From Candidatus Binataceae bacterium (GTDB lineage: Bacteria; Desulfobacterota; Binatia; Binatales; Binataceae), in the NCBI GenBank assembly GCA_035626155.1, contig DASPOF010000027.1, positions 10,685 to 74,684 on the forward strand: a stretch of 64,000 nt of DNA. Direction: 5' to 3'. The translations under genes and the position numbers were made by a program. Below the pieces are notes generated by a model. That model saw only the letters and a program-made list of their open reading frames with translations, did not search any database and was not told where the DNA came from. Below, piece after piece: positions 30,013-64,000 of the stretch. Within the stretch, counting starts at the first letter, position 1, and every line of letters starts with the position of its first letter.

Positions 30013-30017
30013 GACCA

Positions 30018-33360: not shown

Positions 33361-33373
33361 AGATCCGGCAGCT

Positions 33374-34120: not shown

Positions 34121-34129
34121 GGCTGGCTT

Positions 34130-34879
34130 ATGAATAGAAGAGCCTTCCTGAGAACGCTGGGCGCCACCATCGTGCGGGCCGGGGTATTCCTCGGACTCTC
34201 GCGCGCCGGCGCGGTAGGAGCCGCCATCGAGGGCGCGGCGCCGGAAGAGAAGCCGCGCTACGGCATGGCGATCGATATCGACCGGTGCATCGGGTGCGCC
34301 CGCTGCATGGAAGCGTGCAAGACCGAAAATAACGTCCCGCAGGAACCGTTCTACTTTCGCACCTGGGTGGAGCGCTACGTCATCAAGACCGACGAAAGCC
34401 TGACCGTCCAGAACGTCGGGATGGAGAAGTACCAGATCGCGGAACCGATCAACGAGTGGGATATCCTGCGCAGCTTCTTCGTTCCCAAGCTGTGCAACCA
34501 GTGCGACCATCCGCCCTGCACGCAGGTGTGCCCGGTAGGCGCGACGTTCTCCACCGAGGAGGGCGTGATCCTCATCGACTCGACCCGCTGTATCGGTTGC
34601 GGCTACTGCATCCAGGCCTGTCCCTACGGCGCCCGCTATCTCCGACCGGATACCAAGACCGCGGACAAATGCACCTTCTGCTACCATCGAATCACCAAAG
34701 GACTGCTGCCAGCCTGCGTGGAAGTGTGCCCGACGCAAGCGAGGGTGTTCGGCGAGCTGAACACCAGCGCGAGCCCTCTCACCCGCTTCAAGCGCATGGA
34801 GATGATCCATGTGCTTAAGCCCCATCTGAATACGGAGCCCAAAGTTTTCTACGCGAATCTGGACGGGTTAGTCAGATGA
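34130..34879 (+). CDS. Tat-exported 4x[4Fe-4S] ferredoxin-type subunit (PsrB/NrfC/HybA-like)
   Basis: Twin-arginine signal (NRRAFLRTLGA) and four Cys clusters (CIGCARCMEAC, CNQCDHPPCTQVCP, CIGCGYCIQACP, CTFC...CVEVCP). Confidence 0.85.
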   Translation: MNRRAFLRTLGATIVRAGVFLGLSRAGAVGAAIEGAAPEEKPRYGMAIDIDRCIGCARCMEACKTENNVPQEPFYFRTWVERYVIKTDESLTVQNVGMEKYQIAEPINEWDILRSFFVPKLCNQCDHPPCTQVCPVGATFSTEEGVILIDSTRCIGCGYCIQACPYGARYLRPDTKTADKCTFCYHRITKGLLPACVEVCPTQARVFGELNTSASPLTRFKRMEMIHVLKPHLNTEPKVFYANLDGLVR

Positions 34880-36072: not shown

Positions 36073-36326
36073 CGCCCTTTCGATTGGGGCGCACATCCCC
36101 GTAGCGCATCGGCGTTCGTACTTCAGAACAGCAAGTCCGCACCACGTCGAGCTTGAATGCCGGCACCTCGGGAATCGAACGAGATGACTTAGGCCGCGAG
36201 TGCCGGTGCGATAAAGCGATGTTGCGGCGGGGCGGGAAAATCAGGCTTGCCCTGATGGAGCCAATCGACGCGGCCGGTCGCGCGCGGTGAGAACGGGACG
36301 GCGCGAGCGGGAGGCCGGAGCGAACA

Positions 36327-45857: not shown

Positions 45858-46559
45858 TTAAGCCTGGGAGTGCGCCCGTTTCTCGCGTTCGGCGCTGGCG
45901 CGCATCCGTTCGTACTCGAGCGGATGTTCCTTTTCCATGCGCTCATGGCTCACCTTTCCCGTGAAAATGCCGACATCGAAGGGAAATACATCCGGCGATA
46001 GATGAGCGTTGTAGATGTGCCACGTGATCACGATCAGAAAAGCCAACAGCCCCTCGTTGCTGTGCGCGGTGCGGGCCGCCGGGATGAACTCGCCGGGCAA
46101 AAAGCGCGTCGTCAAAACCGGAAAGAACAGCATGAGCCCGGTCACGATCATCAGCAGTGAGCCGACCACCATTCCCCAGTACTCGAACTTCTGCCGGTAG
46201 TCGTAACGGTCGAAGCGCGCCTGCTCGTCGGACACCCGCAAGTAGTAGCGCATCATCATCACCGCATCGCGAAAATCCTTGCGCGTTATGACCATCGACG
46301 GGCTCGTCCGTTTCGAAATCACGAGTACGAGCGCTGCCGCAATGTGGGCGGCGACAACCGCGGCAAACAGGATTCCCGCGCCGCGATGCACCCATCGCAC
46401 GCGATGGATCCCTCCCATCGCCGCGATCACCCACTGCGCCCATTGCGCCTCGAAAAATTTCTGCGCAAGCCCGCTCAGCCCCAGCACCACGAACAGCAGC
46501 ATCACGAACAAATGCTCGATCCGCTGCCTGACGGAAAACCGGATTACATACTCATTCAT
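45858..46559 (-). CDS. Dihaem b-type cytochrome (paralog of 37569-38417)
   Basis: ATG at 46559 (MNEYVIRFSVRQRIEHL), same His pattern as its paralog. ATGA overlap with the upstream 9-haem cytochrome. Confidence 0.75.
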   Translation of the reverse strand: MNEYVIRFSVRQRIEHLFVMLLFVVLGLSGLAQKFFEAQWAQWVIAAMGGIHRVRWVHRGAGILFAAVVAAHIAAALVLVISKRTSPSMVITRKDFRDAVMMMRYYLRVSDEQARFDRYDYRQKFEYWGMVVGSLLMIVTGLMLFFPVLTTRFLPGEFIPAARTAHSNEGLLAFLIVITWHIYNAHLSPDVFPFDVGIFTGKVSHERMEKEHPLEYERMRASAEREKRAHSQA

Positions 46560-47620
46560 CGGTTCACCACTACGCGCCATAGATGCAGGAGAATCTGAAG
46601 CACCAATCCGCCGATCACGAACGGGATGAAGATTATGTAGAAAATCTTGACCGCGTACACCAACGGCGCATGCCGCGGGCTCGCCTCGTAGTGCCCAATC
46701 CACGCGGATGGAAAGTTGGGGCCGGCCCCCGCATGGCAGCGCCGGCAGACCGTGAGCAGGTTCGCCTTGATCACCGCCGTGCTAAGCCCTTCGACCCGGC
46801 TGATGTCATGCACGCCGTGGCAGTCCGTGCAGGTTGCGGTGAACTCGCGCGGGTCGGTTTTCTCGTAGCGCTCCATCGAAACCGTCATCCCGTGGAAGTC
46901 GGTCAGGTAAGTCGTAAGCACCTGGGTCGAAATCCCGTACTTCGCCATCATCTCCTTGTTCGTATGGCATCGTGCGCACAGTTGCGGGATGCCCAAATGC
47001 CACGAGGCCGACGTCGGATTGGTATTGTCGTGCGGATGATGGCAGTCGGTGCAGACCGGGACGTCGCCGTTGTCCTCCTCGAGCAACGCCTTGCCGTGGA
47101 CGCTTTTGACGTATGCCGCGGCGATCGCGGAATGGCACTTCGCGCAGGTGCGTGAAGTCAGCGCGCGCGGCCGGGCCGGCGGCGTAATCGCGTGCGAACC
47201 GTGACAATCGACGCAGGTCGGAGCGCCCTGGTTGCCCTTGGAAATCTCGGCGTAGTGAACGCCGTCGAGCAGCCTGCTGTACTCCGGAAAATGGCACTGC
47301 TTGCACAGCTCGTAGTACGCCAGCCGCATCGCGTGCCGGTTCTGGAACAGCTTCGGCGGATGGGGGACCGTCGTGATGTCGGAATGACAGTCGGTGCAGG
47401 CAAGCTTCCCGCCATGGACCGAATGGGCGAAGCCCTGCGCGTCCACGTAAAGCGAAAGCTTCTCACCATCGCCCAGCTTGGCCGCAAAGGCCTGATTGCC
47501 GTGGCAAGCCATGCAGGTGGCATTGGAAGGAGGGTCGGATGCGGCCGCCGCGCGCTGCCCTCCTGCGAGGGCGACGATGGCGCCGGCCGCCACCATTAAC
47601 AACGCTAATCTTTGCCCCAT
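46556..47620 (-). CDS. 9-haem c-type cytochrome with signal peptide and C-terminal TM anchor
   Basis: 9 CXXCH motifs and a C-terminal TM helix (FYIIFIPFVIGGLVLQILL). Confidence 0.8.
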   Translation of the reverse strand: MGQRLALLMVAAGAIVALAGGQRAAAASDPPSNATCMACHGNQAFAAKLGDGEKLSLYVDAQGFAHSVHGGKLACTDCHSDITTVPHPPKLFQNRHAMRLAYYELCKQCHFPEYSRLLDGVHYAEISKGNQGAPTCVDCHGSHAITPPARPRALTSRTCAKCHSAIAAAYVKSVHGKALLEEDNGDVPVCTDCHHPHDNTNPTSASWHLGIPQLCARCHTNKEMMAKYGISTQVLTTYLTDFHGMTVSMERYEKTDPREFTATCTDCHGVHDISRVEGLSTAVIKANLLTVCRRCHAGAGPNFPSAWIGHYEASPRHAPLVYAVKIFYIIFIPFVIGGLVLQILLHLWRVVVNR

Positions 47621-49261: not shown

Positions 49262-49864
49262 TTGCGCCGGCGCGCGCGATCGGAAGGGAAGATTCACATC
49301 GCGCGGGTTATTGCGGTGAAACCATCAACTGCTGACCTCATCAAGGGCATCCGACACGACCTAATCGAGGCGCGCAATTGCTTTTCGGTTTACCGTGCCT
49401 ACAAGCTCAAAGAGACGCGCGAAAAATACTCAGACGCGTTTCGGACATTCAAGCCATTCCTTTCGTGCGATCTCCGTGCCCACTTCGCCGCGATGATGGT
49501 GACGCTAGGTCGCATTTTCGACCGGGAACCAAAGTACATTGGAATCGCTGCCTTGCTAAAAGCCGCTCCGCACCTCAAGGACTTGGAACCGGAGAAGTAT
49601 AAGCTCGCGATGGATCTCTGGGCGAGCGAGAAAATAATGCTGCTGCGGCATCAAGTTGTCGCTCACCGCTCGCCTCGCACGGAGAAGATTTTCCAGCTTG
49701 TCGATACATGCCTTGCTGACTTCAGCAAGCTCATTCAGTTGCTAGAGCAGCTGGTCGAAGCGTGGTCCCGAGCAGCCAAGTGCGATATGCGTAATTTGGG
49801 GCCAAAAATGGATCGAGAGGTGGATGACCTCCTGAAAGCTTTGAACCGGGTCTCCAAGGATTAG
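49262..49864 (+). CDS. Hypothetical protein in a low-GC (about 52%) stretch
   Basis: Compositionally atypical against the roughly 66% background and codon-periodic. TTG at the annotated start; the true start is uncertain. Confidence 0.4.
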   Translation: MRRRARSEGKIHIARVIAVKPSTADLIKGIRHDLIEARNCFSVYRAYKLKETREKYSDAFRTFKPFLSCDLRAHFAAMMVTLGRIFDREPKYIGIAALLKAAPHLKDLEPEKYKLAMDLWASEKIMLLRHQVVAHRSPRTEKIFQLVDTCLADFSKLIQLLEQLVEAWSRAAKCDMRNLGPKMDREVDDLLKALNRVSKD

Positions 49865-50401: not shown

Positions 50402-51733
50402 TCAGCCGGGAGTTTCCTCGGGCAAATAACTCTTGATTCGATCGACGACCTCCGCAACCGCCTGCTCCCTACCCTCGCGCATCTCCCAAATCGAAATGAT
50501 CGGGAAGAGCTTCACGAAGATCGTGTAAAGCAGGATGAAACCCGCGAGGAAGGCGGCAAACAGCGACATCTCGACCCACGACGGGAAATAGAGGCCGCGC
50601 GCCCACGGCAGACGCGGGTTAATCAGCGTCGGCACCACGATCGTGAACCGTTCGAGCCACATCCCGATGCACACCGAGATGGATGCCACCACGATGCCGG
50701 GGATCGTCCGGGTCTTGCGGTTGCAAAGGATGGCGAAGGGGATCACGAAGTCGGTCGCAACCATCGTCCAGAAGAACGCGGCATAGCGGCCCGTGATCTT
50801 CTCCCAAAACACCGCCATCTCCACCGGATCGTGGCCATAGTAAGTCGTGATGTATTCCGCAAACGTGAAATACAGCCAGAGCAGGGTCATCACGAGGAGC
50901 AACTCGCCAAGATAGTCGAAGTGGATTTCCTTCAGGTAATCCTCGAGATGGTACACCTTGCGCAGCAGCGCCATCGTCAGCAGTAGCGCCGCGATACCCG
51001 AATAGATCGCGCCCGCGACGAAGTATGGCCCGAAGATGCTCGAGTGCCACATCGGCTGAATCGTCATCGCGAAGACCCACGAGACGACCGTGTGCACCGA
51101 GACTGCGATCGGGATCACCACGACCGCCAGAATGGCGATCGCGACTTGCAGGGTGCGATGCTGCCGCTCGGAGCCGGTCCATCCCAGCGCCAGCGCCGTG
51201 TAGATCGGCCGGCGCCATCCGCCCGTCCGGTCGCGCAGCAGCGCGATGTCTGGGATCATCGCGACATACAGATAGGTGGTGCTCGTGAAGAGGTAGGTCG
51301 TGATGCTGATCACGTCCCACATCAGCGGCGAGGTGAAATGGCTGTAGCGAAAGACGTAAAGCACGCGGTCGGGGCGCCCGAGGTCGAGCAGGATGTTGCC
51401 CGCGCCGAAAAACAGCACCATCACCGTGATCGTTTCGGCCAGCCGCGTGATCGGCCTGCGCCATTCCGCCTGGCACAGCCTCAGGATCGCGGAGATCAGC
51501 GTCCCGGCATGGCTGATGCCGACGAAGAATACGAAGTTGGTGATGTAGAATCCCCAGTACACCGGCCGGTTGAGGCCGGTCACCCCAAGTCCCTGTTCGA
51601 ACTGGGTGACATACGCATAGACGCCCCACAGCACCGTGCAGATCAGGAGAAACAGCACGGCGTAGTAGAGCTTGCCGGTCTTCAGGACCGGATCGAATAG
51701 CAGCGAATCCTGCTCGCGCGGTTCAGCCTGCAA
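50402..51733 (-). CDS. NrfD-family membrane subunit (ActC/QrcD/PsrC-like)
   Basis: Polytopic NrfD pattern (GLNRPVYWGFYITNFVFFVGISHAG, PLMWDV). Probable TTG start at 51733 preceded by AAGGAAGGTGAG; the annotated ORF (to 51778) would overlap the FeS gene by 55 nt. Confidence 0.8.
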   Translation of the reverse strand: MQAEPREQDSLLFDPVLKTGKLYYAVLFLLICTVLWGVYAYVTQFEQGLGVTGLNRPVYWGFYITNFVFFVGISHAGTLISAILRLCQAEWRRPITRLAETITVMVLFFGAGNILLDLGRPDRVLYVFRYSHFTSPLMWDVISITTYLFTSTTYLYVAMIPDIALLRDRTGGWRRPIYTALALGWTGSERQHRTLQVAIAILAVVVIPIAVSVHTVVSWVFAMTIQPMWHSSIFGPYFVAGAIYSGIAALLLTMALLRKVYHLEDYLKEIHFDYLGELLLVMTLLWLYFTFAEYITTYYGHDPVEMAVFWEKITGRYAAFFWTMVATDFVIPFAILCNRKTRTIPGIVVASISVCIGMWLERFTIVVPTLINPRLPWARGLYFPSWVEMSLFAAFLAGFILLYTIFVKLFPIISIWEMREGREQAVAEVVDRIKSYLPEETPG

Positions 51734-52424
51734 TCCACTCACCTTCCTTGAGATAGATGACATTGGGTTCGGTGCCAAGTTCCTCCATGACCCGGAATGC
51801 CCTGGCGCTTCTCGTGATTTTGGCGATCTCGGTGGTCTGATCCTCGAGGTCGCCGAAATACATGGCCTTTGCCGGGCAGCTCTCCACGCATGCGGGGACG
51901 TATTCGCCCTCGCTGCGGACTTGCCGTTTCTCGATCGCAGCCTGATCGCGGGCCTTTTGCAAGCGCTGGACGCAGAAGGTGCATTTCTCGATCACGCCCT
52001 TGGGCCTGATCGCGACGTCCGGGTTGCGCGGCGGCTTCAACTCGTCGGGCCACTGCGGCGGGAACCAGTTGAAATACTTGACCTGGTAAGGACACGCGCT
52101 CGCGCAGTAGCGGCATCCGATGCACCGGGGATAAATCTGCCCGACGATTCCCTGCTGCGTGCTCTTGTAGGTCGCGCCCACCGGGCAGACCCGCACGCAG
52201 GGAGGCTTGTCGCACTGCTGGCAGAGCATCGGCAGGAACCGCACCCGGGTGTTCGGATAGTCGCCCTCGACAACCGTCAGCACGTTCATCCAGGAAATCA
52301 GCCGCCCGCGATCCGCCTGGTCCTGCGTCGAGGGGGCGATGTTGTTTTCCTGCTTGCACGCGATCATGCAGGCCCGGCATCCCGTGCACTTATCGAGGTC
52401 GATTACCATGCCCCATCGCGGCAT
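51723..52424 (-). CDS. 4x[4Fe-4S] ferredoxin-type subunit (PsrB/ActB2/QrcC-like)
   Basis: Four Cys clusters (CTGCRACMIAC, CQQCDKPPCVRVCP, CIGCRYCASACP, CTFC...CVESCP); no Tat signal of its own. Confidence 0.85.
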   Translation of the reverse strand: MPRWGMVIDLDKCTGCRACMIACKQENNIAPSTQDQADRGRLISWMNVLTVVEGDYPNTRVRFLPMLCQQCDKPPCVRVCPVGATYKSTQQGIVGQIYPRCIGCRYCASACPYQVKYFNWFPPQWPDELKPPRNPDVAIRPKGVIEKCTFCVQRLQKARDQAAIEKRQVRSEGEYVPACVESCPAKAMYFGDLEDQTTEIAKITRSARAFRVMEELGTEPNVIYLKEGEWIAG

Positions 52425-52444
52425 CTGTGCTTCTCCAGTTCCCC

Positions 52445-54820
52445 CTACGCCTTGGACACCCGCACACGCGGGGCCGCGCCGTTAGCCAGCAATTCGAGCG
52501 GATTGACGCCTCTGCCCTTGGCCCATCTGCCCAAAGCCGTATGGCCCTGGCCCAAAGGCAGATTGACCACATTGGGCATCGCGCCCGCGTACAGGAGTGC
52601 GCGAGTCTTCAGTTTTGCCGCCGCGGATTGCACGATCACCCAGTCGCCATTTTCGATTCCGAGCGAAGCCGCGGTCTTCGGATTTATCTCGACGAATGAA
52701 TCCCAGGGCCACACCTGCGGACCGCCGACTATCTCCTGCAGATACGGCAGATTGGCCGATGCGCGGCCCATCAGCGCAATCGGCTGAAAAAGGCAAAGCT
52801 CGAACGGGTAGCCGGACAGATCGCCTCCGCTGAAAATTGGCGAGGACGCCTCGGTCGCGAGCAGACGCGGAAGCTCGAACTTGCCCGACGGAGCTTTCAG
52901 CCCCGCGCGATAATCGCCGTACACGTAGCGCGGATCGACCCATCCGCCATGCGCGAGCAGGCGCTTGACGAAATCATCGCGCGAGCCATATTTCCGCGCC
53001 GGCCAGTCCCAGGCCCTTATCTCGGGCCGCAGATATTCGGTCTGGAAACGTTCCGTGAAGATTTCGCCGTGCGGCGACTCGTAAAGCCCCGTCAGCAACT
53101 CGTTGAGCGCCTGCGAAGGTTCGGTCCATGGGAATGCGCCAGCGACGTCGCCATCGAAGGCGTGCGCGAGATCCAAAACCACTTGCGCGCAAGGACGTGA
53201 TTCATAGCGCGGAGCCAGAACCGGACTCCCGACCGCCACCGAGCTTACCGCAAAGCCGGGACTCGACGTGCGAATCTCCCAGCGTTCGAGCGAGCTGCAC
53301 TCGGGAAGGACGAGATCGGCGTACGCCGCAGTCTCATCGAGCTGCGATGCGAAGCTCACGACGAAGGGGACCTTCGTGATCGTCTCGCGCGGGAAATCGA
53401 GCGATGAGAAGAGCGGATTGGCTCCGAGCAGGAACAGCGCATTGATCTTGTACGGCTGCGACTCCCACACCGCGCGCGCCAGCGATTTGACGCTGTCGAG
53501 CGCCGGCTTCGCGACCGCCTCCGGCTTGACGCCCGCCGAACTCTTGACCGCCGGCCACCACGAAAGCGGAGGCACCGGGCAGGTCAGAACGCCGCCGGGC
53601 TTCTCGATGTTGCCGGCAAGCGCGTTCAATGCCTGGACTGCAACCGAATAGAATGCCGCCGTGCCGCCGGTGAACCTGCGGCCTCCCGCCACGGCCAGCG
53701 AGGGACCGGAAATCGCGAACTCGTGCGCAAGGCGCGTGATGGTCTCGACCTGCACGCCGGTGATTTCCGCGACCTTGGGCGCGTCGTACTCCTGGCTCAG
53801 CAGCGCGCGGAAACCGTTGGGCTGCCCGCTTTCGTTGCCCGGCCACGAGTCGAATCCGGCCACGTGCGCCGCCACAAAGGCGGCATCGTAGAGGTTGTAC
53901 TTGACCAGTGCGTTGGCGATCCCGAGCGCCAGGACGCCCTCCGTGCCCGGATTGACCGGCACCCACTCATCCGCCTTGGCGGCGGTCGCGGACATCCGGC
54001 TCTCGATCTGCACGAGCTTTCCGCGCCGGCCCTCCCAGCCGCCGCGAAATTCCCCGATCGCTCTCATCTGGCGCACCGGCGACATCGCCTCGAACATTGG
54101 TGCTCCGAAACTCAGGATGTATCGCGCGTTTTCGAAATCGTACGCGACTCGCCCGTTGATGCCCTGCGTGATGTCCTGCCCATCCGACGGCGCCGCATCC
54201 GCCTCGAAGATGAAGTTGGGCGAGCCGTACACGTCGAGGAATCGCGCCATCAGACGCCCGGCGAGCTCGGATGTCCCGCTGCTCAGAGCCGCGACTGTGT
54301 GCGCTGCGCCGCCGGTGCGCAGATCGGCGAGCTTCGCCTTGATCGTCGCGATCGCCTCGTCCCAGGAAATCTCCTGCCAATTGCCGGCGCCGCGCTCGCC
54401 CACGCACTTCAGCGGCGACCTTACCCGGTCCGGGCCGTACACCAACTGAAGCGCCGCCTGCCCGACCGGGCACAAAGCGCCCTGGTTGACCGGGTCCAGC
54501 GGGTTCCCCTCGACTTTGATCGCCCACTCGCCGCGCTTGAGCCCGTCCGAGCCGAGCTTGCGCACAATCGTTCCGCATCGCGCCGGGCATAGCCCGCATA
54601 GCGATACGATGCGCGATTCGGGGCCGTGCTCCGGGAAGTCCTCCTGCGGAACGACGTTGAGCGCTTGCGCTGCCGCGCCCAGACCGACCGCGGAACCGGC
54701 GCCCAGCGCGGCCGTGCCCAGCCCGACCATCTTGAGGAAGTCGCGCCGGGCGACAGCGTGCTCGTTGCCGCTCGATGCGCCCGTGGCGCCCCGTTGGTTA
54801 TTTTTACCGCCGCTTGTCAT
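52445..54820 (-). CDS. Molybdopterin-oxidoreductase (CISM/DMSO-reductase family) large subunit with Tat signal (PsrA/PhsA/TtrA/ActB1/QrcB-like)
   Basis: Tat motif ARRDFLKMVGLGTAALGAG and N-terminal FS0-type CX2CX3C (LCGLCPARCG). About 790 aa from the ATG at 54820, which overlaps the upstream pentahaem stop (ATGA). Confidence 0.8.
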   Translation of the reverse strand: MTSGGKNNQRGATGASSGNEHAVARRDFLKMVGLGTAALGAGSAVGLGAAAQALNVVPQEDFPEHGPESRIVSLCGLCPARCGTIVRKLGSDGLKRGEWAIKVEGNPLDPVNQGALCPVGQAALQLVYGPDRVRSPLKCVGERGAGNWQEISWDEAIATIKAKLADLRTGGAAHTVAALSSGTSELAGRLMARFLDVYGSPNFIFEADAAPSDGQDITQGINGRVAYDFENARYILSFGAPMFEAMSPVRQMRAIGEFRGGWEGRRGKLVQIESRMSATAAKADEWVPVNPGTEGVLALGIANALVKYNLYDAAFVAAHVAGFDSWPGNESGQPNGFRALLSQEYDAPKVAEITGVQVETITRLAHEFAISGPSLAVAGGRRFTGGTAAFYSVAVQALNALAGNIEKPGGVLTCPVPPLSWWPAVKSSAGVKPEAVAKPALDSVKSLARAVWESQPYKINALFLLGANPLFSSLDFPRETITKVPFVVSFASQLDETAAYADLVLPECSSLERWEIRTSSPGFAVSSVAVGSPVLAPRYESRPCAQVVLDLAHAFDGDVAGAFPWTEPSQALNELLTGLYESPHGEIFTERFQTEYLRPEIRAWDWPARKYGSRDDFVKRLLAHGGWVDPRYVYGDYRAGLKAPSGKFELPRLLATEASSPIFSGGDLSGYPFELCLFQPIALMGRASANLPYLQEIVGGPQVWPWDSFVEINPKTAASLGIENGDWVIVQSAAAKLKTRALLYAGAMPNVVNLPLGQGHTALGRWAKGRGVNPLELLANGAAPRVRVSKA

Positions 54821-55395
54821 TTGTGACACGAGATGCAGTCCGTCGATGCCTGGCGCTGCTGATGGCAGTTCATGCACCAGTCCATCGACTGATTTATCGC
54901 CGGACGGACCGGAGGCGAAGTCAAGCTGGTCATATCGCCGTGGCAGGTTGCGCACTCGACTTTCCCGATCACGACGTGCCGGCGATGCGAGAAGAAGACG
55001 TAGTCGGGCTGTCCATAGACCCTGTTCCACGGAATCCACCCGGCTGCCGCAAAGTCTTTGAGCTTCGCAAGCTCCGGCTTGGCAGCGAGCTTCGCCGCCG
55101 TCATCCGCTTGATGATCCTGTGGCAGCTCATGCAGGTATCCGGCTGCGGGATCCCGGCGAAGGTCTCTTTCTCCACCGTCTCATGGCAACTCGTGCAGGC
55201 GATGCCGTTCTTGCCGGAAACGTGACGGTGATGGTCGAAAGCGATCGGCTGTTCAACGGCAGGCGTATACCGCAGGCACGCCGATGCTAACAGGGCGAGC
55301 CCGCCGCCAAGCAAAGCAAGCCCGACAGCCGCCGATCGCCAGCGCACCAATCGGCCTGCAAGGCGCCCGATTGGATCTGATTTGGACATCCTCAC
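54817..55395 (-). CDS. Membrane-anchored pentahaem c-type cytochrome (ActA/NrfB/NapC-like)
   Basis: N-terminal TM helix plus 5 CXXCH motifs (CTSCH, CMSCH, CATCH, CMNCH, CISCH). Confidence 0.8.
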   Translation of the reverse strand: MRMSKSDPIGRLAGRLVRWRSAAVGLALLGGGLALLASACLRYTPAVEQPIAFDHHRHVSGKNGIACTSCHETVEKETFAGIPQPDTCMSCHRIIKRMTAAKLAAKPELAKLKDFAAAGWIPWNRVYGQPDYVFFSHRRHVVIGKVECATCHGDMTSLTSPPVRPAINQSMDWCMNCHQQRQASTDCISCHK

Positions 55396-55801: not shown

Positions 55802-56185
55802 TCACTTCTTGCAGAAGCTCCGCAGGTAGCCGACCAAGCCCTTGATGTCGGCGTCGCTCATCCCGTCGCCGAAGGGAGGCATCGCCGCGTTCAAGTTCGC
55901 CGCCGGTCCGCCTTCCTTGATAACCTTGAAGATGGTGTCATCGGTGACCTTCGACATCTTCGCGCAATCGGTAAAGTCACCCACCTTCGCTGAGAGCTTC
56001 GAGGCGCTGGGGCCATCGCCCTTGCCGGTCTGGCCGTGGCAGTCTGCGCATGAATCCGTGTAAGTGGCCTTCGCATCGGCCGATGCGGGCGCCGCTCTGA
56101 GAACCAGCGCGAGCGTTGCCGCTGCGGGCAGTGCGACAAGCATCCAACCCATCGATCTCACTTTCGTCCCCGAATAATTCGGCAT
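55802..56185 (-). CDS. Monohaem class-I c-type cytochrome (paralog of 49949-50317)
   Basis: ATG at 56185 with a GGAGG RBS, a signal peptide and CADCH. The C-terminus (KVTDDTIFKVIKEGGPAANL...IKGLVGYLRSFCKK) is near-identical in pattern to its paralog. Confidence 0.75.
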   Translation of the reverse strand: MPNYSGTKVRSMGWMLVALPAAATLALVLRAAPASADAKATYTDSCADCHGQTGKGDGPSASKLSAKVGDFTDCAKMSKVTDDTIFKVIKEGGPAANLNAAMPPFGDGMSDADIKGLVGYLRSFCKK

Positions 56186-56520: not shown

Positions 56521-58194
56521 TTAAGGGAAGTAATCTTCCGGCTCGGTGCCGACGACGGGAAATTTAAGGCCTTTGATTGAAAAATCCTTATGGGCGAAAA
56601 GCCCGGCGATCCTGTCTCCGTAAATCAATTTCCAATCAGGGTCCATATTCAGCAAGATCCAGCGGTTGGATAACGTATCCACGATGGCATAGTCATGCTT
56701 ATAGGCCTTGAGCATGTGCTCGGGATCGCCCTCGCTCGATTCGAAGACGAAATAGTCATTGATCACTTGATCAGGGTAGACCGTATCGTAGCGGCCGTCG
56801 ATGAATACCTTGCTGTCAGGTGAAAGATGCCAGATGAGATACTCGCCCCAATTGTAAATTGAGAGGACATTGCCGTGCAGATGGTGCTCTTTCATGAAAT
56901 CCACGGCGCCGACCGGAGATGGCACCATGGGTTCGAGCACCGGGGAGAAGAGCGCGTTGTAGATCAGCAGGACCGCAGCGACGGCGGCGAATAGCTGGCC
57001 CAGATACTCCCGGCTGGAGTGCTCAGGCTCGCCGGTTGCCCCGGCCGCCAAGCCCTCTCGCGCCGTCGCTCGCCGCGCGGGCCGGCTTGACGCGCGAGCC
57101 GATCGTTGCTGCCAGGCCAGCCCCACGTGACGCGCCAGCGGGATGGTCGTCGCGATCACCGCAAGCGGCAGGTTCCGCATCGCGGTCAGCGCCGCAATCG
57201 AAAATACGATCGCGATCGCCACCAGCGGCAGATCCTTGCCGCGCGGCGCGAGCGCGACCGCGATAACCAACGCGAGCAGGAACCCCACCGCCTCGACGAA
57301 CAGGAGCGCGGCCGGCACGGCAATCTTCCACACTTCGGCGACGGTGCTGGTAAGCGGCTTCCAGTCGTTGATCACCTTGTGCGTCAGCGGATTAGTCAGT
57401 GCGTGCAAGACTGCGTACCAGGCTCCGATACCATAAGGATTGACCAGGGTCGCGAGCAGCGACGCGATTACTATCGCGATCAGGTAAGCGGCGCGCCGCC
57501 AGTCCCGGCTTTCGATCACCGCCTGGCTGGACCCGACTGCTGCATAGATGCCAATTGCTCCCAGCCCCGCGATATAGGCGCCGTGGAAGTTCGCCCATAG
57601 CGCCATCATCGGTATCACCAGCCACAGTGGCCCGGCGCGGCGATAGCTGTCGCGCGCCAGCAGCCACATAAGCGCGGCCATCAGGGTGAAGCTGAAAAGC
57701 TGCGGCCGCAGCATCATCTGCGACGCCATAGCCGGGGCGGTCAGCATTATAACCGCAGCCTGGATCGGCGCGATTACCTGGGTCTCTGCCAGCGCGAGAG
57801 CCAGAAACAGAACCATCATCGCGCTGAAGCAGAACTTGACCAGTTCGAGCCCGAACACGCGGCCGGCGTTGTAGGCGATCGCGAATACCACCTCGGAAAG
57901 CCACTCGTGATTGCGCCACAGATGGCCCGGCGCCGAGTAGGAATACGGATCGTATTCAATCATGTGCCCGGCCTTCAGCATCGCCTGGCCGAAGCGGATG
58001 TGGCCCCACAGATCGGAATCGGCGAACGTAAAAGCGTCGACGACGGCGATCGCGAGCAGCAGGTACATCGATGGGTAGCCGAACCACGACGCGGCACGGC
58101 TCAGCACCGATGGGGACTCAACGGCCGCAATGGGCCCCGGCGCCATCTCCCGGTGCTCTCTACGTTCCGCCTTGAGCCGCTGCGCCTTGGACAT
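56521..58194 (-). CDS. Polytopic membrane protein with C-terminal soluble domain (GT-C-like glycosyltransferase?), hypothetical
   Basis: About 10 predicted TM helices in the N-terminal 330 aa, a Pro/Arg/Ala-rich linker and a roughly 150-aa C-terminal domain. No confident family assignment. Confidence 0.45.
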   Translation of the reverse strand: MSKAQRLKAERREHREMAPGPIAAVESPSVLSRAASWFGYPSMYLLLAIAVVDAFTFADSDLWGHIRFGQAMLKAGHMIEYDPYSYSAPGHLWRNHEWLSEVVFAIAYNAGRVFGLELVKFCFSAMMVLFLALALAETQVIAPIQAAVIMLTAPAMASQMMLRPQLFSFTLMAALMWLLARDSYRRAGPLWLVIPMMALWANFHGAYIAGLGAIGIYAAVGSSQAVIESRDWRRAAYLIAIVIASLLATLVNPYGIGAWYAVLHALTNPLTHKVINDWKPLTSTVAEVWKIAVPAALLFVEAVGFLLALVIAVALAPRGKDLPLVAIAIVFSIAALTAMRNLPLAVIATTIPLARHVGLAWQQRSARASSRPARRATAREGLAAGATGEPEHSSREYLGQLFAAVAAVLLIYNALFSPVLEPMVPSPVGAVDFMKEHHLHGNVLSIYNWGEYLIWHLSPDSKVFIDGRYDTVYPDQVINDYFVFESSEGDPEHMLKAYKHDYAIVDTLSNRWILLNMDPDWKLIYGDRIAGLFAHKDFSIKGLKFPVVGTEPEDYFP

Positions 58195-58297: not shown

Positions 58298-60130
58298 TCA
58301 ATACTTCTTGGGGTTGTGGTCCACGCCGTGGCACTTGAGATAGCAGCTACCATGGCCGCCCAAGCCCGGTGCCGGGTCGAACTCGAGCCGCCCGCTGCTC
58401 GAACGCCTCACCACGGGGGCGCCCGTCTTCGACATGATCATGAAATTGATCAAGCGGGGGCTGCGCTGCGAACCGTGCGGGTCGTGACAGACCGCACACG
58501 AGGTCTGATTCTGGACGACGTGCTTTTGGTGCGGGAAATGCCCGCTGCCGAACAGAAGCGTCGAGCGATTATGGCATGTGTAGCACAGAGCGTAGCTGGA
58601 CATTGACTCCAGGTATGGGTCGTCGGTCTCGTACTCCTGCGCCAGGATCGGCGCCCATCGCGAACCGTGCGGACCCTTGGGACTCGAACCGGCCGGCGTC
58701 CACCGGTCATTGTTGTGACAGTCGATGCACGAAATGATGCTCGATGCGGTGTAGCCCGCCTCGAGGCCGGCGATCGTCGGGTCCTTGCCCTGCGTCACTA
58801 TCGGATGGAATGACTGGTTGGTGGGACGGATTTTCATCCGGATGTTGCGGGTCGTGTCCTGGCGAACTATTCCCGGGGTGGTCGGCTCGGCGATTCCGTG
58901 GCACTTGAGACAGATTTCGTATTCGTGGCTGGCCTGCTGGACGTAGGTGCCGGACATACCTACGCCGGAAACTCCGAACAGCGGCCCCGAAGTGATGAAT
59001 GTTATCTTGCTGGCGGCCCGCATCGAGCTTTCGGACTTGGAGGCGCTTCCCGCCGCGTGCGGATTGTGGCAATCCGCACACGTAACGTGACGCGCCATGC
59101 TCAGAGGGTCTTCCTTCGGTTTGTGATTCCACTGCTTGCTCAAGATCGGGTGACTGGACGGAAGCAGGAGCTGCTGCGCGATGTTCTTTTGCGCCATCGT
59201 GCCGTCGTGGCAGATGGTGCAATTCGACGGTTCATCGGTCTGCGCGAGCAGCCATTCCGGATGGGGCGCGGCGTGCGGGCGATGACAACTGAGGCAGGCG
59301 TTCTCCGCCACGGTTCCGTATCCGTCGGCGGGGAACGGATTTTTGCCGCCGGCCTTCCACCGGGCGTTGGAGGTGGCGTGGCTTGAGACCGTCCAGCCCG
59401 TCATCTTATGGCATAGCGTACATTGAGCGGAGTAGCGGTTGTCCGTCCGCAGGAAGTTCGGCCACCGGGTCTCGTGCGGGTCGTGACAGGTCGAACACTG
59501 AAGATCCGTGGCGTCTTCCAGGGGAGCCGTGCGGGGTAGCGCCGAAGGTTGGGCCAGCTCGCCTGCTTTCGCGGCCAGAGAGTTATTGTAAACGAACGAA
59601 ATCGGATGGCTCCCCGAGAGGTCCGTTCCGAGCACGGTATTGCCGGTGAGCTGCCCCAGGGTAAGTATTCCGTTCTTTGGTGGGACTCGCACCTTGCTGA
59701 GCGCGATCACCCCATCATGGCACGACAGGCACAGGCGCGACGTTCCGGTGGGCTGGCTCAGCGTCGCCTGCATCGTGCTGCTTTCATACAGCTTGTAGGT
59801 TACAGCCGGCATCTGGCGGTTCCACAGGCCGCGGGTCGGCTTCGCGTCATGCGGAGTGTGACAGTACACGCACACGCCCGACTGCACCTTCTTTTCCCGG
59901 ATTTTCCCCGGCCCCAAGGGGGTCAGATTGTGGACGGTATTCGTGATATCGCCCTGGACGCCGACACGCGTCGATACTGCGCCGGCACTCTCCGATTGTG
60001 CGCCCGCGCGCGCCGGCCAAAGCAACGCGCAGACGGCCGCGATGAGCAGGGTCCCTGTCAACAGGCGCCCTGGTGAGCCGCCCCCGTGTCTGCGAGCAGG
60101 GCTCCGTCTCCGTTGCGTAACAATCATCAT
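58298..60130 (-). CDS. Dodecahaem c-type cytochrome, exported (11 CXXCH + 1 CX3CH)
   Basis: Signal peptide; 11 CXXCH motifs plus CYLKCH near the C-terminus. 610 aa. Confidence 0.8.
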   Translation of the reverse strand: MMIVTQRRRSPARRHGGGSPGRLLTGTLLIAAVCALLWPARAGAQSESAGAVSTRVGVQGDITNTVHNLTPLGPGKIREKKVQSGVCVYCHTPHDAKPTRGLWNRQMPAVTYKLYESSTMQATLSQPTGTSRLCLSCHDGVIALSKVRVPPKNGILTLGQLTGNTVLGTDLSGSHPISFVYNNSLAAKAGELAQPSALPRTAPLEDATDLQCSTCHDPHETRWPNFLRTDNRYSAQCTLCHKMTGWTVSSHATSNARWKAGGKNPFPADGYGTVAENACLSCHRPHAAPHPEWLLAQTDEPSNCTICHDGTMAQKNIAQQLLLPSSHPILSKQWNHKPKEDPLSMARHVTCADCHNPHAAGSASKSESSMRAASKITFITSGPLFGVSGVGMSGTYVQQASHEYEICLKCHGIAEPTTPGIVRQDTTRNIRMKIRPTNQSFHPIVTQGKDPTIAGLEAGYTASSIISCIDCHNNDRWTPAGSSPKGPHGSRWAPILAQEYETDDPYLESMSSYALCYTCHNRSTLLFGSGHFPHQKHVVQNQTSCAVCHDPHGSQRSPRLINFMIMSKTGAPVVRRSSSGRLEFDPAPGLGGHGSCYLKCHGVDHNPKKY

Positions 60131-61203
60131 GAGCTTTGCTTCGGATTCGCCTGCGGCCGCTCGGAGGTGCCCAGGAATTCGAAAACCTGAATTCGCCGGT
60201 TAAACGAATCGGCCACGTAGATCCGATCCTGGCGGTCGATGAATGCTCCCTCGGGAAGCCAGAACTTCCCGGGCGCGGTTCCTCGATCTCCAAAGGAAAG
60301 GAGCAGGCCACCCTCCGCGTTGAATATCTGTACCGTGTCAAACAGCGCATCGACCACGTAAAGATGTCCGTCGCTGTCGGCTGCGACCCCTTTGGGCGAG
60401 GCGAAATCACCGGAGCCGTCGCCCTCATGACCGATCTTCCAGAGGAATTTGCCGTCGCGATCGAAGGCCTGGACACGGTAGTTGAGCGCGTCGGTCACGA
60501 GCAGCACGCCCGATCGCTCGAGGGCGAGATAGCTCGGAAAATTGAACTCTCCGTCGCCGAGTCCTCTGCTGCCCCACGCCGTAACGCGCGCACCGTCCGA
60601 GGTGAAAACGTCGATGCGCTGGCCGGCCGAATCCGCCACGTAGAGACGATCGTTGGTCTCGTCATAGGCGAGCGCGGCCGGCCGCTCGATGCCGTCTTCA
60701 GCCACCGTCCGCAGGAATTTGCCCTCGCGATCGAGGAGAAAAACTTTCTTCAGATACGAGTCCGCCACAAAGAAGGAGCCGTCCGGCCGGACGGCGACCG
60801 CCACCGGCGACACCAGGTTGGCGCCATTGACGCTAGTAATTGTCGCCGAGCGCTGATTGGCGGGATCGAAGATCCACACCGCCTGCGCTCCCGAATCGGC
60901 GACATAGAGCAGGCCATCGCGCTCGGCGATGCCGGTGGGCCGGATCAGGTGGCCGGCCTTCTTGCCTGTGACCGCGTCAACGAGCCGCCCGAAAAACGAC
61001 TTCTCGATTCCGAGGTCGCGCGGCTCAGCAATCGTGCGCACGAAACGGATCCGCGCGGCAGCCGGTGGCGGCGGCCACACCATCCGGTCGTACGCTCCCG
61101 CGCTGGCAGGCGCCGGAGCCTCACCGGCTCGATTCGATGCCTGACAACCTGCGCCGATCAGAACGAGCGCCGCCGCCAGTGCCGTTTCAACCCATCGACG
61201 CAT
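60127..61203 (-). CDS. NHL-repeat (six-bladed beta-propeller) lipoprotein
   Basis: Lipobox LIGAGC and repeated LYVADS/FFVADS/LLVTD/LYVVD blades. ATGA overlap with the dodecahaem gene. ATG at 61203. Confidence 0.75.
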   Translation of the reverse strand: MRRWVETALAAALVLIGAGCQASNRAGEAPAPASAGAYDRMVWPPPPAAARIRFVRTIAEPRDLGIEKSFFGRLVDAVTGKKAGHLIRPTGIAERDGLLYVADSGAQAVWIFDPANQRSATITSVNGANLVSPVAVAVRPDGSFFVADSYLKKVFLLDREGKFLRTVAEDGIERPAALAYDETNDRLYVADSAGQRIDVFTSDGARVTAWGSRGLGDGEFNFPSYLALERSGVLLVTDALNYRVQAFDRDGKFLWKIGHEGDGSGDFASPKGVAADSDGHLYVVDALFDTVQIFNAEGGLLLSFGDRGTAPGKFWLPEGAFIDRQDRIYVADSFNRRIQVFEFLGTSERPQANPKQSS

Positions 61204-61213
61204 CGGAACCCGC

Positions 61214-63265
61214 TCAGAACAATATCCTGACCACTCTGATTTGAACCAACAGGTCGTTGGTGGTTGTGGTGGAAAACGTGCGCCGATACCACGATAGAGA
61301 TGGTAAGAACTGCAGTTTTCCAATTGTGTATGTCATCTGGGCGCCGACCTCGACCTGCTTTGTGGTGGGAATTTGGCTATCTTCGACCTCGCTCATAATC
61401 GCGAACATCGACGCCCGTCCGCGCTCTCCAATGGGACGATCTCCGCTGAGTTGGAAGGCATAGGTTTTGGTCTGGTGCCGCGGCAGGGTGTAGTCCATGA
61501 AGGTTTCACTTGCGCTCGCAGCGAGTACGGCCTCCCAGCCCGGCCGAGCAGTGACGGCCTGCGAAAGCATGGTCGAATTAAAAGATACGCTGGTCGAATC
61601 CACCGTTTGGTACGTCGCGTCAGCCCTGGCCCCAAAAGTTTCCCATTCATGATGGACACCACCGCTAACGCTGTTGGCCGTCGAGGATTCGAGAAACTGA
61701 GAACCCGTACCGCTCAGCAGGTTCTGGCTGATCGCCTGGTATGAGTACGACAAATAGAACCATGGATAAGTGACCCCGACGGTAACCTGTCTCGTGCTCG
61801 TGGAAAATTTGGATTTGGCCGGCACCTGGTAGTTGTAGCTGACAAGCAGGGGGTCTCCCGGGTGAATGATCAGACTGGTAGGCAGCGGAACGATCTCGGT
61901 CTGATTGCCGATCTGAAGGACATCGTAATCCACGTTCAGCACCGTGGGGACTCTGCCGTGGGCGACATCCACCATCACGATACTGTTGGCAATAACAAAG
62001 GTATTATTCAGGAAAAAGCCGAGGTTGGTCCCGAATATCGGCGGCGCAGTGTGCGATTCGTCAGTCACGTGAATCACAGAAGACGATATATCATCGTCCT
62101 CGATCCCGTATACGCCATTGGTGTCCAGAAAAAACATGCCGTTCCAGGGGAGCGTGTGAGTATAGTCGCTCTCCGCGCCGACCCAGTAGTTAGTGATGGT
62201 GCCCGTCGGCACCGTTTCGCGTATGAAGCCCAGGATCAGACTCTCATTAAGGTTCCGGAACATGCTCTGCAACAACGTGAACTGCCCGTACTGATAAGTG
62301 GTAACCCCGTAGTCTGGAACATCGTTGTACTGGAACTGGTACTGATAGGTAGTTGAAAGGTTCTGGTAGTGATCGATGCGCAGCACCTCGTTGAGCGAAA
62401 GGAATTCCTGCGAACCGCTCGTCCCGGATAGCGTGTAACCATAAATGTCCGAGTTCAACGATCGATTCAGGTCCGGACCGAAATCCAGAAAGTAGCTGAG
62501 GCCGGCGACGTTGGTCTGAAATCCGGAATGAGTGGTCCCGGTCAGGTGGTCATTGTCGAACTCGTAGTGAAACATGAGATCGGCGGTCTGAAAGCCCTTG
62601 TTCGCGACGTAACTGACGACATCATGCTGCTCGTCGAGCTGGAACGTTTCACCGAGCTGCGTGGTTTTCTGGTCGAAGTTTTGCGCGACGGCCGAGAGCC
62701 TGGAAGTGAAATAAGACACTCCCAGGCCTCTCAGGAAGCTGTCTTCCAGGACCTGCGCCGTCATGCCGTAGTTCATGGTGTCGGTGGTGGTGTGGCCGCC
62801 GAACGTGGTGTTCAAGTAGGTCTGGCTTTGATTGGCAAACAGCGTACCGTTTTCGGGCCACAGTGGCAGGACCGCCGCCGAAACGTCGTAGCCCCAGAGC
62901 AGTCCATCTTCATAGAGGCCTTTGCCTTCCGAAAAATTGTCCTGCTCCTGGTACAGGTCCAGATCGACTGCCGCATCCATCGTGATGAGGCGCGGATCGA
63001 TGATATAGATGCCGTCGTTTCGGAGTTTCAGCCGCTCGTCCCAACGATAGTCCTGTGCGGTGAGCGTGGACGAGGGAGTGCTGGATTCCTGATTCTCGAA
63101 CTGAAACCCACCTTCCACCTGTCCTTGCCATTCCCCGAGCTGCACGTCACCTTCGTAATCCTGGAACGAGAAAGCGAGCGCGCCGCCCGCAGACAGCAAA
63201 ATCGCCGCAAGCATCGATGCCAGCAGGAGCAGGCCGGATAGTCGCGCGTTCGCTATTGATGGCAT
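61214..63265 (-). CDS. Large outer-membrane beta-barrel protein (porin-like, 683 aa)
   Basis: Signal peptide, alternating amphipathic Ser/Thr/Tyr-rich strands and a C-terminal ...VVRILF with terminal Phe. GC content is lower than its neighbours. ATG at 63265 (GTG at 63274). Confidence 0.6.
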   Translation of the reverse strand: MPSIANARLSGLLLLASMLAAILLSAGGALAFSFQDYEGDVQLGEWQGQVEGGFQFENQESSTPSSTLTAQDYRWDERLKLRNDGIYIIDPRLITMDAAVDLDLYQEQDNFSEGKGLYEDGLLWGYDVSAAVLPLWPENGTLFANQSQTYLNTTFGGHTTTDTMNYGMTAQVLEDSFLRGLGVSYFTSRLSAVAQNFDQKTTQLGETFQLDEQHDVVSYVANKGFQTADLMFHYEFDNDHLTGTTHSGFQTNVAGLSYFLDFGPDLNRSLNSDIYGYTLSGTSGSQEFLSLNEVLRIDHYQNLSTTYQYQFQYNDVPDYGVTTYQYGQFTLLQSMFRNLNESLILGFIRETVPTGTITNYWVGAESDYTHTLPWNGMFFLDTNGVYGIEDDDISSSVIHVTDESHTAPPIFGTNLGFFLNNTFVIANSIVMVDVAHGRVPTVLNVDYDVLQIGNQTEIVPLPTSLIIHPGDPLLVSYNYQVPAKSKFSTSTRQVTVGVTYPWFYLSYSYQAISQNLLSGTGSQFLESSTANSVSGGVHHEWETFGARADATYQTVDSTSVSFNSTMLSQAVTARPGWEAVLAASASETFMDYTLPRHQTKTYAFQLSGDRPIGERGRASMFAIMSEVEDSQIPTTKQVEVGAQMTYTIGKLQFLPSLSWYRRTFSTTTTNDLLVQIRVVRILF

Positions 63266-63585
63266 AGCGCGCACTTCTCGAAGCTCGACGCCGCGAAGGC
63301 GGTTTTCCCGTTATGGCAGGCGCCGCAGAACTTGCCGTTGCCAATCGCGTCCATGGAGATTTCGTCAGCGCCCCGCTTCATCTTGAACAGCGAGTCGTGG
63401 CACGCGTAACACTTGTAGAGCACCCGGTGCAGCGTGTGAGGGAATGCGGCGGGCGGAAATTGCTCGCCCCCAGTCGGCGTGCCCTTGCGCGGAAGTATCA
63501 AATCACCCGGGGCGGCCATCGCCGCGCCGCCGAGCGCGATCAGCAGCAGTCCCACGGCGCAAAGCGCCAGAACTCCGCGCGTCAT
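63253..63585 (-). CDS. Trihaem periplasmic c-type cytochrome (c7/c3-like)
   Basis: Signal peptide plus CYACH, CGACH and CALCH in about 85 mature residues. Confidence 0.7.
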   Translation of the reverse strand: MTRGVLALCAVGLLLIALGGAAMAAPGDLILPRKGTPTGGEQFPPAAFPHTLHRVLYKCYACHDSLFKMKRGADEISMDAIGNGKFCGACHNGKTAFAASSFEKCALCHQ

Positions 63586-64000
63586 TTCCCCCCACCCATC
63601 GACTTATGACAGCGCGCACATCCGGTCGGGATTGCGAATGCCACCTTGCCGTGACAGACCCCGCAATACTTTCCGGCGTACAGGGTCCCCATCGTGACCG
63701 GATCGGCGTCCTTCTTCATCTTGAAGATCGCCACGTGACAGTTGGCGCAGGCGAGCCACTGGGTGTGGCTCTTGTGCGAGAACACCACCTTCATCCCCGG
63801 CTGCGCCTTGGGAACCATCTCCACATCGAGATTGAGCGGCGGTTGATCCTTCGCGTCTTTGGCAATTCCCGGCTTCGGCTGAATCAAATCTTCGTTCAGG
63901 GCGCGCACCCAGTCCGGCTTTCCGCTCTTGTCGGTGGGCACTTCGGGCATCAGGTCCGCCAGCCAGTCGCGCCCGTGCCTTTGCTTCGGGAGACCTGCTT
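63582..64000 (-). CDS. Trihaem c-type cytochrome, paralog of 63253-63585; 5' end beyond window edge
   Basis: CANCH, CGVCH and CARCH. The reading frame stays open upstream of the ATG at 63950 to the end of the window with no signal peptide yet, so the gene is partial. Confidence 0.6.
   Translation of the reverse strand, partial: AGLPKQRHGRDWLADLMPEVPTDKSGKPDWVRALNEDLIQPKPGIAKDAKDQPPLNLDVEMVPKAQPGMKVVFSHKSHTQWLACANCHVAIFKMKKDADPVTMGTLYAGKYCGVCHGKVAFAIPTGCARCHKSMGGGK

Follow-up and report, generated by a model that had tools for sequence, protein, structure and literature searches.

A 64,000-nucleotide stretch of DNA from Candidatus Binataceae bacterium (contig DASPOF010000027.1), here called the window, ends in five minus-strand genes for two trihaem c7-type cytochromes, a large outer-membrane protein, an NHL beta-propeller lipoprotein and an exported 12-haem cytochrome. 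We consider it rather probable that these genes make up the core operon of an outer-membrane cytochrome module of the OmcE-nanowire/Uet type, a conserved set of seven genes. Judged from its genes, the module most likely serves as a haem pathway across the outer membrane, in which an OmcE-like filament probably takes part. The cluster is the Binatia instance of a recently recognised and widespread module and not a new type of conduit.

Binatia are abundant, uncultured bacteria of soils and sediments, known from their genomes as methylotrophs and alkane degraders. The presence of a complete OmcE/Uet-type module within a 35-kb island of multihaem and quinone-complex genes suggests that they can exchange electrons with minerals, humics or partner cells. 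This near-invariant seven-gene module is common to Binatia, Rokubacteria and many lithotrophic Proteobacteria, and links the “Uet” uptake cluster and the Geobacter OmcE nanowire cluster as one family of hardware; the OmcE-like head of its 12-haem cytochrome is a concrete candidate for nanowire anchoring and electron feeding. The interest of the cluster rests on the extension to this phylum, on the unification of Uet with OmcE and on the anchor hypothesis.

The five genes were verified by listing of open reading frames (ORFs), motif counting and domain scans; together with two subregions they are:

63582..64000 (63582-63950 as ORF), minus strand: c7a, trihaem c7-type cytochrome with three CXXCH motifs, 3' part of the gene
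63253..63585, minus strand: c7b, soluble periplasmic trihaem c7-type cytochrome, 110 amino acids (aa), three CXXCH motifs
61214..63274, minus strand: predicted outer-membrane beta-barrel protein (OMP), 686 aa, or 683 aa from ATG 63265, as NCBI annotates it
61853..62047, minus strand: insert of the barrel and best-conserved part of that protein, ~65 aa, residues ~410-474, strands 18/19
60127..61203, minus strand: NHL1, six-bladed NHL beta-propeller lipoprotein, 358 aa, lipobox LIGAGC
58298..60130, minus strand: MHC12, exported 12-haem c-type cytochrome, 610 aa, 11 CXXCH motifs and CYLKCH
59405..59959, minus strand: OmcE-like tetrahaem module of MHC12, residues 58-242, haems 1-4

A preliminary description of this DNA had reported five consecutive minus-strand genes with overlapping or adjacent ends, and both the ORF listing and the junctions bear this out. 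The c7b start lies over the c7a stop in an ATGA overlap, c7b and the OMP gene overlap by 13-22 nt depending on the OMP start, a 10-nt gap separates OMP from NHL1, and the NHL1 stop lies over the MHC12 start in a second ATGA. No terminator was found inside the five-gene unit in a promoter/terminator scan. Upstream of c7a a sigma-54 promoter search gave one match with two mismatches; this is not significant, with 12 matches against the 21 expected from shuffled sequence. A single tightly coupled unit of five genes is supported.

The module itself is larger. Contig L001, which is 99.98% identical over 12.8 kb (window coordinate = 72033 - L001 coordinate), extends the cluster past position 64000, so that the extent first given holds for the five genes and leaves out two more upstream of c7a: NHL2, a second NHL lipoprotein [L001 5013-6113; NHL Pfam, E=1.4e-21], and MHC4, a tetrahaem cytochrome of 292-302 aa with no lipobox [L001 6201-7109, just outside the window]. 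Between MHC4 and c7a there is a strong terminator-like hairpin (L001 7235-7263 + T8), a consensus match which suggests two transcription units, NHL2-MHC4 and c7a-to-MHC12.

The OmcE-like cytochromes and the conserved module

MHC12 had been described as a secreted 12-haem cytochrome with one CX3CH motif, and indeed it possesses 11 CXXCH motifs and one CX3CH (CYLKCH), behind a signal of the signal-peptidase-I type and with no lipobox. It has more than 5180 homologues, 52-58% identical across phyla, and all 12 haem motifs are invariant in 48 of these homologues. The profile of these 48 sequences matches the filament subunit of Geobacter sulfurreducens OmcE [PDB 7tfs_A, E=5.8e-38] and a 16-chain multihaem filament entry [9yuq_N, E=7e-30], which is presumably the Desulfuromonas soudanensis OmcE bundle. 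By phmmer the window protein alone matches 7tfs_A [E=1.1e-22], residues 58-242 against OmcE residues 22-231, and the eight haem-ligand histidines of OmcE are all aligned in it (H67, H91, H94, H138, H175, H216, H219 and H241). The OmcE-like profile matches only the N-terminal third of the protein. A three-fold OmcE repeat was rejected, the match being limited to these ~220 residues. The C-terminal eight haems are accompanied by four spare invariant histidines.

MHC4 alone also matches 7tfs_A [phmmer, E=3.4e-7], and its family profile gives a full-length match to OmcE [7tfs_A, E=1.7e-18; 9yuq_N, E=9e-16]. Its invariant histidines number exactly eight, four in CXXCH motifs and four distal (H66, H97, H100, H150, H201, H269, H272 and H300), which is the pattern of eight conserved histidines of OmcE homologues (bioRxiv 10.1101/2025.10.22.684050). 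Because MHC12 bears an OmcE-like head and an OmcE homologue is encoded nearby, the likeliest function shifts to a nanowire-type system.

The minimal omcE nanowire cluster consists of an OmcE-family tetrahaem cytochrome, two beta-propeller lipoproteins, a large beta-barrel and two additional multihaem cytochromes (bioRxiv 10.1101/2025.10.22.684050). This inventory, from Desulfuromonadia (G. sulfurreducens OmcE, 7tfs; D. soudanensis OmcE), is the same as that of the present module, in which MHC4 is the OmcE-homologous tetrahaem with eight ligand histidines, the large barrel is that modelled here with ~28-30 strands, NHL1 and NHL2 are the propeller lipoproteins, and the c7a/c7b pair and MHC12 are the additional multihaem cytochromes. 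The paper on the omcE cluster names homologues in five phyla, Binatota, to which the present host belongs, and Methylomirabilota not being among them. Two features differ: an OmcE-like module on a long cytochrome, found here in MHC12, is not reported for omcE operons, and the large glycosylation island of omcE clusters is absent at this module.

The second comparison is with Uet of Candidatus Tenderia electrophaga and the Tenderiales, which comprises the tetrahaem UetA, the 28-strand barrel UetC, the c7 trihaems UetD/E/G, the peptidyl-prolyl isomerase (PPIase) UetB, the cupredoxin UetF, the NHL proteins UetH/I and UetJ, an 11-CXXCH “doubled CXXCH” cytochrome (bioRxiv 10.1101/2022.05.06.490989). 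Some Gallionella possess Uet-like sets whose UetJ has 11 or 12 haems (PMC10734462). In a comparison of inventories only, the Uet core (tetrahaem, 28-strand barrel, c7 cytochromes, two NHL proteins and 11-CXXCH cytochrome) is matched here, and loci related to the present one are found in neighbouring Gamma- and Betaproteobacteria. The large barrel and the NHL partner, first taken as departures from known conduits, are standard parts of the described omcE and Uet cluster types.

Related loci were collected from gene neighbourhoods of barrel and MHC12 homologues, by a genome scan and by phmmer mapping. The order NHL2/MHC4 ... c7a-c7b-OMP-NHL1-MHC12 recurs, nearly fixed, in ~35 loci, and since these are independent and belong to several phyla the arrangement is far beyond chance. 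Carriers include Binatia, “delta proteobacterium” metagenome-assembled genomes, Rokubacteria (Methylomirabilota), Aromatoleum, Burkholderiales, Comamonadaceae, Rhodoferax, Rhodocyclales (Rhodocyclaceae), Hydrogenophilales, Thiohalobacter, Ectothiorhodospiraceae and Acidiferrobacterales. In all mapped loci the barrel gene adjoins cytochrome genes, NHL1 directly precedes MHC12, and MHC12 has 12 haem motifs; the separate OmcE homologue MHC4 co-occurs in almost all. The ATGA coupling of NHL1 to MHC12, correctly noted at the outset, is retained as a 4-nt overlap in almost every related locus.

Median identities between the window proteins and their non-Binatia copies are:

NHL1, 56%
MHC12, 52%
c7b, 51%
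NHL2, 50%
c7a, 42%
MHC4, 40%
barrel, 33%

The high identity of NHL1 and MHC12 across phyla suggests to us that the whole module, as a unit, moved between phyla in the past.

Of 39 loci, 11 have genes for class-I c-type cytochromes within the module or next to it. In Rokubacteria and Gammaproteobacteria two- or three-domain cytochromes of this class (cbb3-type) are situated between the MHC4-type gene and c7a, a hint of a high-potential connection in these groups, perhaps with an oxidase. The inserts are:

L009, 4420-5484
L030, 5398-6480
L022, 2259-3242
L028, 5057-6109
L024, 987-1217

The barrel, the propeller lipoproteins and the c7 pair

For the 686-aa protein a very large beta-barrel in the outer membrane is predicted with good confidence, in agreement with the preliminary description, which also noted the terminal phenylalanine. 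The protein is 100% identical to a hypothetical protein from a metagenome-assembled genome of Candidatus Binataceae. Its C-terminus reads ...RILF, its signal peptide ends ...ALA/FSF and its probable start is ATG 63265. Domain scans gave no Pfam or NCBIfam match, including none to MtrB_PioB. The AlphaFold2 (AF2) model, built with 20 homologues, is a barrel [predicted local distance difference test (pLDDT) 83.2; predicted template-modelling score 0.63] in which DSSP assigns 18 long strands, an insert of ~65 residues and then ~11-12 further strands, that is, ~28-30 in total. Most of the residues that are invariant or nearly so (E406, H408 of an HTAP motif, D449, Y450, D474 and Y480) lie within the insert or next to it. 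This stretch is modelled at pLDDT 71-87, and the insert is a candidate plug or docking site.

An exhaustive hidden Markov model (HMM) search returned 2069 representatives of the barrel family at E<=1e-3, 826 of them at E<=1e-30, against only 21 proteins by word-indexed search; the family is therefore large but fast-evolving. One barrel homologue, P0306, has a precomputed match to PF27730, a family newer than the Pfam copy searched, so that part of the barrel family may be covered by a recent Pfam release already.

The barrel gene has a lower GC content (0.551) than its neighbours (0.60-0.64), which had been read as a hint of horizontal acquisition. Its GC at third codon positions (GC3) is 0.70, against 0.70-0.78 in the neighbours, and the dip resides in the first two codon positions. 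In a set of 28 related loci the mean GC difference between the barrel gene and NHL1 + MHC12 is -0.048, negative in nearly all loci and absent in a few, and the mean GC3 difference is -0.009. Since the dip falls in positions 1 and 2 and recurs in nearly all these loci, it reflects the Tyr/Asn/Thr/Ser/Phe-rich composition of the barrel, and horizontal transfer of the barrel gene alone is not supported.

The likeliest start of NHL1 is ATG 61203, which gives a product of 358 aa MRRWVETALAAALVLIGAGC with its stop at 60127. The protein was recognised early as an NHL propeller lipoprotein with lipobox LIGAGC; the lipobox is confirmed and the domain scores E=8e-27, with a further match to the six-bladed propeller DUF5128. 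SGL/gluconolactonase, arylesterase and ScyF-like models are also matched, the last with 172 bits against a cut-off of 350. Throughout the module lipoboxes are conserved in c7a, NHL1 and NHL2, and ordinary signal peptides in c7b, MHC12 and MHC4.

Four proteobacterial loci (L023, L026, L033 and L035) have, after MHC12, a third pair made up of an NHL propeller and a 7-haem cytochrome, and the OmcE-like tetrahaem is duplicated in tandem in L011, L026 and L037. It would seem, then, that a propeller and a cytochrome make up a two-gene unit that can be repeated.

The two c7-type proteins are paralogues [35% identity, E=3e-17], as first described; the description of c7a needs correction, for the gene is truncated by the end of the window. 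The gene runs on to about 64193-64262 (L001 7771/7840-8451), and its full-length product is a lipoprotein of 203-226 aa with lipobox LGGC, a proline-rich linker and a C-terminal c7 domain. Among its homologues 30 of 34 have the lipobox. The signal of c7b is of the signal-peptidase-I type, and 26 of 27 homologues are without a lipobox. Both proteins match PF14522 [Cytochrome_C7; c7a 5e-14, c7b 5e-16] and pass TIGR04257 (76 and 71 bits, respectively, against a 40-bit cut-off), and neither reaches the Geobacter PpcA equivalog NF043011 (26 bits vs 120). Many related loci encode the two as one fusion protein with 6 or 9 haems.

Two and a half direct repeats of ~60 nt (L001 7519-7670, ~window 64363-64514) occupy part of the 660-nt spacer that runs from the terminator-like hairpin after MHC4 to the start of c7a. 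Each repeat holds a 10-bp hairpin, CTTCCCCCGC-N8-GCGGGGGAAG; regulatory sites or elements like repetitive extragenic palindromes are candidates.

Proposed function and its alternatives

We envisage two units, the first comprising c7a, c7b, the barrel, NHL1 and MHC12 and the second NHL2 and MHC4. Quinone-linked complexes of the inner membrane would exchange electrons with the periplasmic c7 pair; the candidates in the window are the adjacent Qrc-like complex and the pair of a multihaem cytochrome and a cytochrome b. The c7 proteins would in turn link to a haem chain that is housed, exported and/or anchored by the barrel. MHC12 would carry this chain to the surface and away from it, together with the OmcE-like tetrahaem, which probably forms a polymer. 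The propeller lipoprotein paired with each exported cytochrome may be an assembly scaffold or an anchor. Electrons could flow outward, with minerals or humics as acceptors, or inward, with Fe(II), minerals or cathodes as donors.

Within this scheme we tentatively put forward MHC12 as a base or adaptor joining an OmcE-type filament to the trans-barrel haem chain, an idea we regard as speculative. Subunits of OmcE and OmcS filaments supply a histidine ligand to a haem of the next subunit (PMC9473688). By such a link the OmcE-like head of MHC12 might dock the first MHC4 subunit, with participation of the invariant histidine (His67) of its N-terminal T-x-H-N-L motif; the C-terminal eight haems would run through the 28-30-strand barrel to the periplasmic c7 pair, and NHL1, encoded with a 4-nt overlap, would hold MHC12 at the membrane. 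How nanowires are anchored, initiated and terminated are open questions, and no such candidate is reported for omcE operons (bioRxiv 10.1101/2025.10.22.684050). If the idea is true, one protein would explain both the anchoring of the filament to the cell and its electrical wiring to it.

Several points weigh against an OmcE/Uet-type module. Equating it with the omcE and Uet clusters rests on OmcE homology and a matching inventory, and the subfamily shared by Proteobacteria and Binatia is known from genes alone; we infer the MHC4 filament, the threading of a cytochrome through the barrel and the surface exposure of the NHL proteins, all three. The AF2 model of MHC12, made with 48 homologues, is unusable (pLDDT 36) and no fold could be assigned from it. 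Gene order differs from that of Tenderia (4-haem, PPIase, OMP, c7, c7, cupredoxin, c7, NHL, NHL, 11-haem; bioRxiv 10.1101/2022.05.06.490989), there being two c7 genes here versus three, and unlike Uet the called genes of the 21-kb locus include no PPIase or cupredoxin domain. A search with a proteobacterial-barrel profile found 43 proteins, none of them a named Tenderia or Leptothrix protein. The Qrc-like complex is not kept beside the module in the other loci examined. Finally, G. sulfurreducens can reduce Fe(III) oxide and produce current without OmcE (PMC13194489).

The preliminary description had an Fe(III)-reducing direction in mind. This was an assumption, and the relatives of the cluster are mostly lithotrophic Beta- and Gammaproteobacteria, where electron uptake has been proposed. 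Reverse use, in which extracellular Fe(II), minerals or reduced humics are oxidised and c7 and class-I cytochromes relay the electrons to the quinone pool or to a terminal oxidase, is in our estimation quite possible, if somewhat short of probable; it concerns direction only and is compatible with an OmcE/Uet-type module. The closest carriers outside Binatia are mostly of lithoautotroph type (Thiohalobacter, Acidiferrobacterales, Hydrogenophilales, Ectothiorhodospiraceae, Rhodocyclaceae and Burkholderiales), and Uet has been proposed for cathode and Fe(II) oxidation in Tenderia and Gallionella. Class-I cytochrome genes lie within the module in L009, L022, L024, L028 and L030 and flank it here, although the association is seen in just 11 of the 39 loci, and the neighbouring Qrc-like complex is of the “menaquinone reductase” type. 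In Desulfovibrio ferrophilus the clusters DFE_0448-0451 and DFE_0461-0465 encode multihaem cytochromes co-expressed with NHL propellers; the propellers have been proposed as stabilisers of a cytochrome complex in the outer membrane that takes up electrons (PMC5815863, PMC9769857). Expression of these NHL + multihaem clusters is induced for electron uptake; they show no evident porin, unlike the module here, and their cytochromes are likened to ours by description. On the other side, the omcE clusters of Desulfuromonadia belong to metal reducers, and multihaem chains are reversible, so that direction is not set by sequence.

Alternatively the barrel and propellers might form only a secretion or assembly machine, comparable to an usher and its chaperone, with electrons taking another route or diffusible carriers; this we consider unlikely, though worth keeping in mind. 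The barrel of the omcE cluster is treated as a putative secretion pore or anchor (bioRxiv 10.1101/2025.10.22.684050), the barrels of both omcE and omcS having been published as “secretion or anchor”. For the osc cluster that accompanies OmcS in G. sulfurreducens, the account of Shen et al. 2025 given in PMC13194489 gives proposed roles in secretion (OscEFG), folding (OscH) and morphology (OscD). As far as that account goes the logic is alike (filament cytochrome, channel-like outer-membrane component and beta-propeller-like protein) but the resemblance is one of description only: OmcS is a hexahaem without sequence similarity to OmcE, and a prolyl isomerase is part of the cluster. The conserved internal ~65-aa insert of the barrel recalls an usher plug, to which it is not homologous, and each exported cytochrome has a propeller partner of its own.

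A plain conduit of the Mtr/Pcc style, in which MHC12 sits inside the barrel and passes electrons to partners at the surface for Fe(III) or electrode reduction, with no filament, appears to us improbable. The likeness to Pcc/Ext first proposed is reasonable insofar as a periplasmic cytochrome, a barrel and an exported cytochrome or lipoprotein are involved. The MtrCAB system of Shewanella and Pcc/Ext of Geobacter likewise combine a periplasmic multihaem, a large barrel and an exported cytochrome, and the present barrel is comparable in size to the 26-strand MtrB. The likeness does not extend to family membership: in domain scans no component of the module matches MtrCAB or Pcc at the family level. 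The barrel does not match MtrB_PioB; in the MtrA/DmsE family TIGR03508 is hit with 80 bits against a 192-bit cut-off, and MHC12 is without a TIGR03507 match. With ~50 residues per haem MHC12 is also bulkier than rods of the MtrA type. No lipoprotein cytochrome of the MtrC/OmcA or OmcB type is present, MHC12 and MHC4 both being without a lipobox. The module has instead NHL propellers and an OmcE module, and no lipoprotein deca- or dodecahaem; the N-terminal third of MHC12 is that OmcE module, and a separate OmcE homologue accompanies it in almost all loci.

Catalytic NHL propellers of the lactonase/SGL-like kind, with the cytochromes as electron partners in a periplasmic or outer-membrane redox enzyme system, are very improbable, for the SGL/gluconolactonase, arylesterase and ScyF-like matches that favour them fall far under the cut-offs and reflect a shared propeller fold, structural roles suit proteins so constantly paired with OmcE-like cytochromes and a giant barrel, and gene neighbourhoods include no conserved substrate-related genes.

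Genomic surroundings in the window

The window is a multihaem island with ~59 haem motifs, the present cluster included. The gene immediately downstream of MHC12, at a distance of 103 nt, specifies a polytopic membrane protein of 557 aa for which Pfam, NCBIfam and the PDB gave no match. It is kept after MHC12 only in close Binataceae relatives (L005, L015, L018 and L034) and is a possible accessory gene of the module; no support was found for its being a glycosyltransferase. In L005 the genes after it are GT87 genes and two for 484-aa proteins with a weak likeness to PMT_2, and in L010 a PMT_2 gene is located upstream of the module. These neighbours recall the glycosylation genes reported beside Geobacter omcE clusters.

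Further downstream are a monohaem class-I cytochrome c and then a Qrc-like four-gene complex (50402-55395), the scores of which (QrcC 311 bits, QrcB 295 bits) are under the equivalog cut-offs. Next come a 9-haem cytochrome and an overlapping cytochrome b561/FdnI-like protein, a pair which presumably resembles a split version of the Geobacter CbcL-type inner-membrane quinol oxidoreductase. A second respiratory set occupies 26145-37568. The features are:

56521..58194, minus strand: 557-aa polytopic membrane protein
55802-56185: monohaem class-I cytochrome c
54817-55395: Qrc-like pentahaem cytochrome
52445-55039 (as ORF): Qrc-like molybdopterin subunit, exported by the twin-arginine pathway
51723-52424: Qrc-like FeS subunit (QrcC, 311 bits vs 400-bit cut-off)
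50402-51778: Qrc-like NrfD
49262-49864, plus strand: ORF with a HEPN AbiU2 domain (E=2.7e-10)
46556-47620: 9-haem cytochrome
45858-46703: cytochrome b561/FdnI-like membrane protein
43885-45747: histidine kinase, after the 9-haem + cytochrome b pair
36327-37568: 11-haem cytochrome
34876-36072: second NrfD
33374-34120: 8-haem cytochrome
31822-33360: 7-haem NapC/NirT-like cytochrome
30337-31629: NrfD
26145-29137: histidine kinase and sigma-54 response regulator, at the start of the second respiratory set

L008 and L009 also have such a pair, of a histidine kinase and a sigma-54 activator, with its position directly upstream of the module. The HEPN AbiU2-domain ORF, a putative abortive-infection or toxin gene, lies between the respiratory sets.

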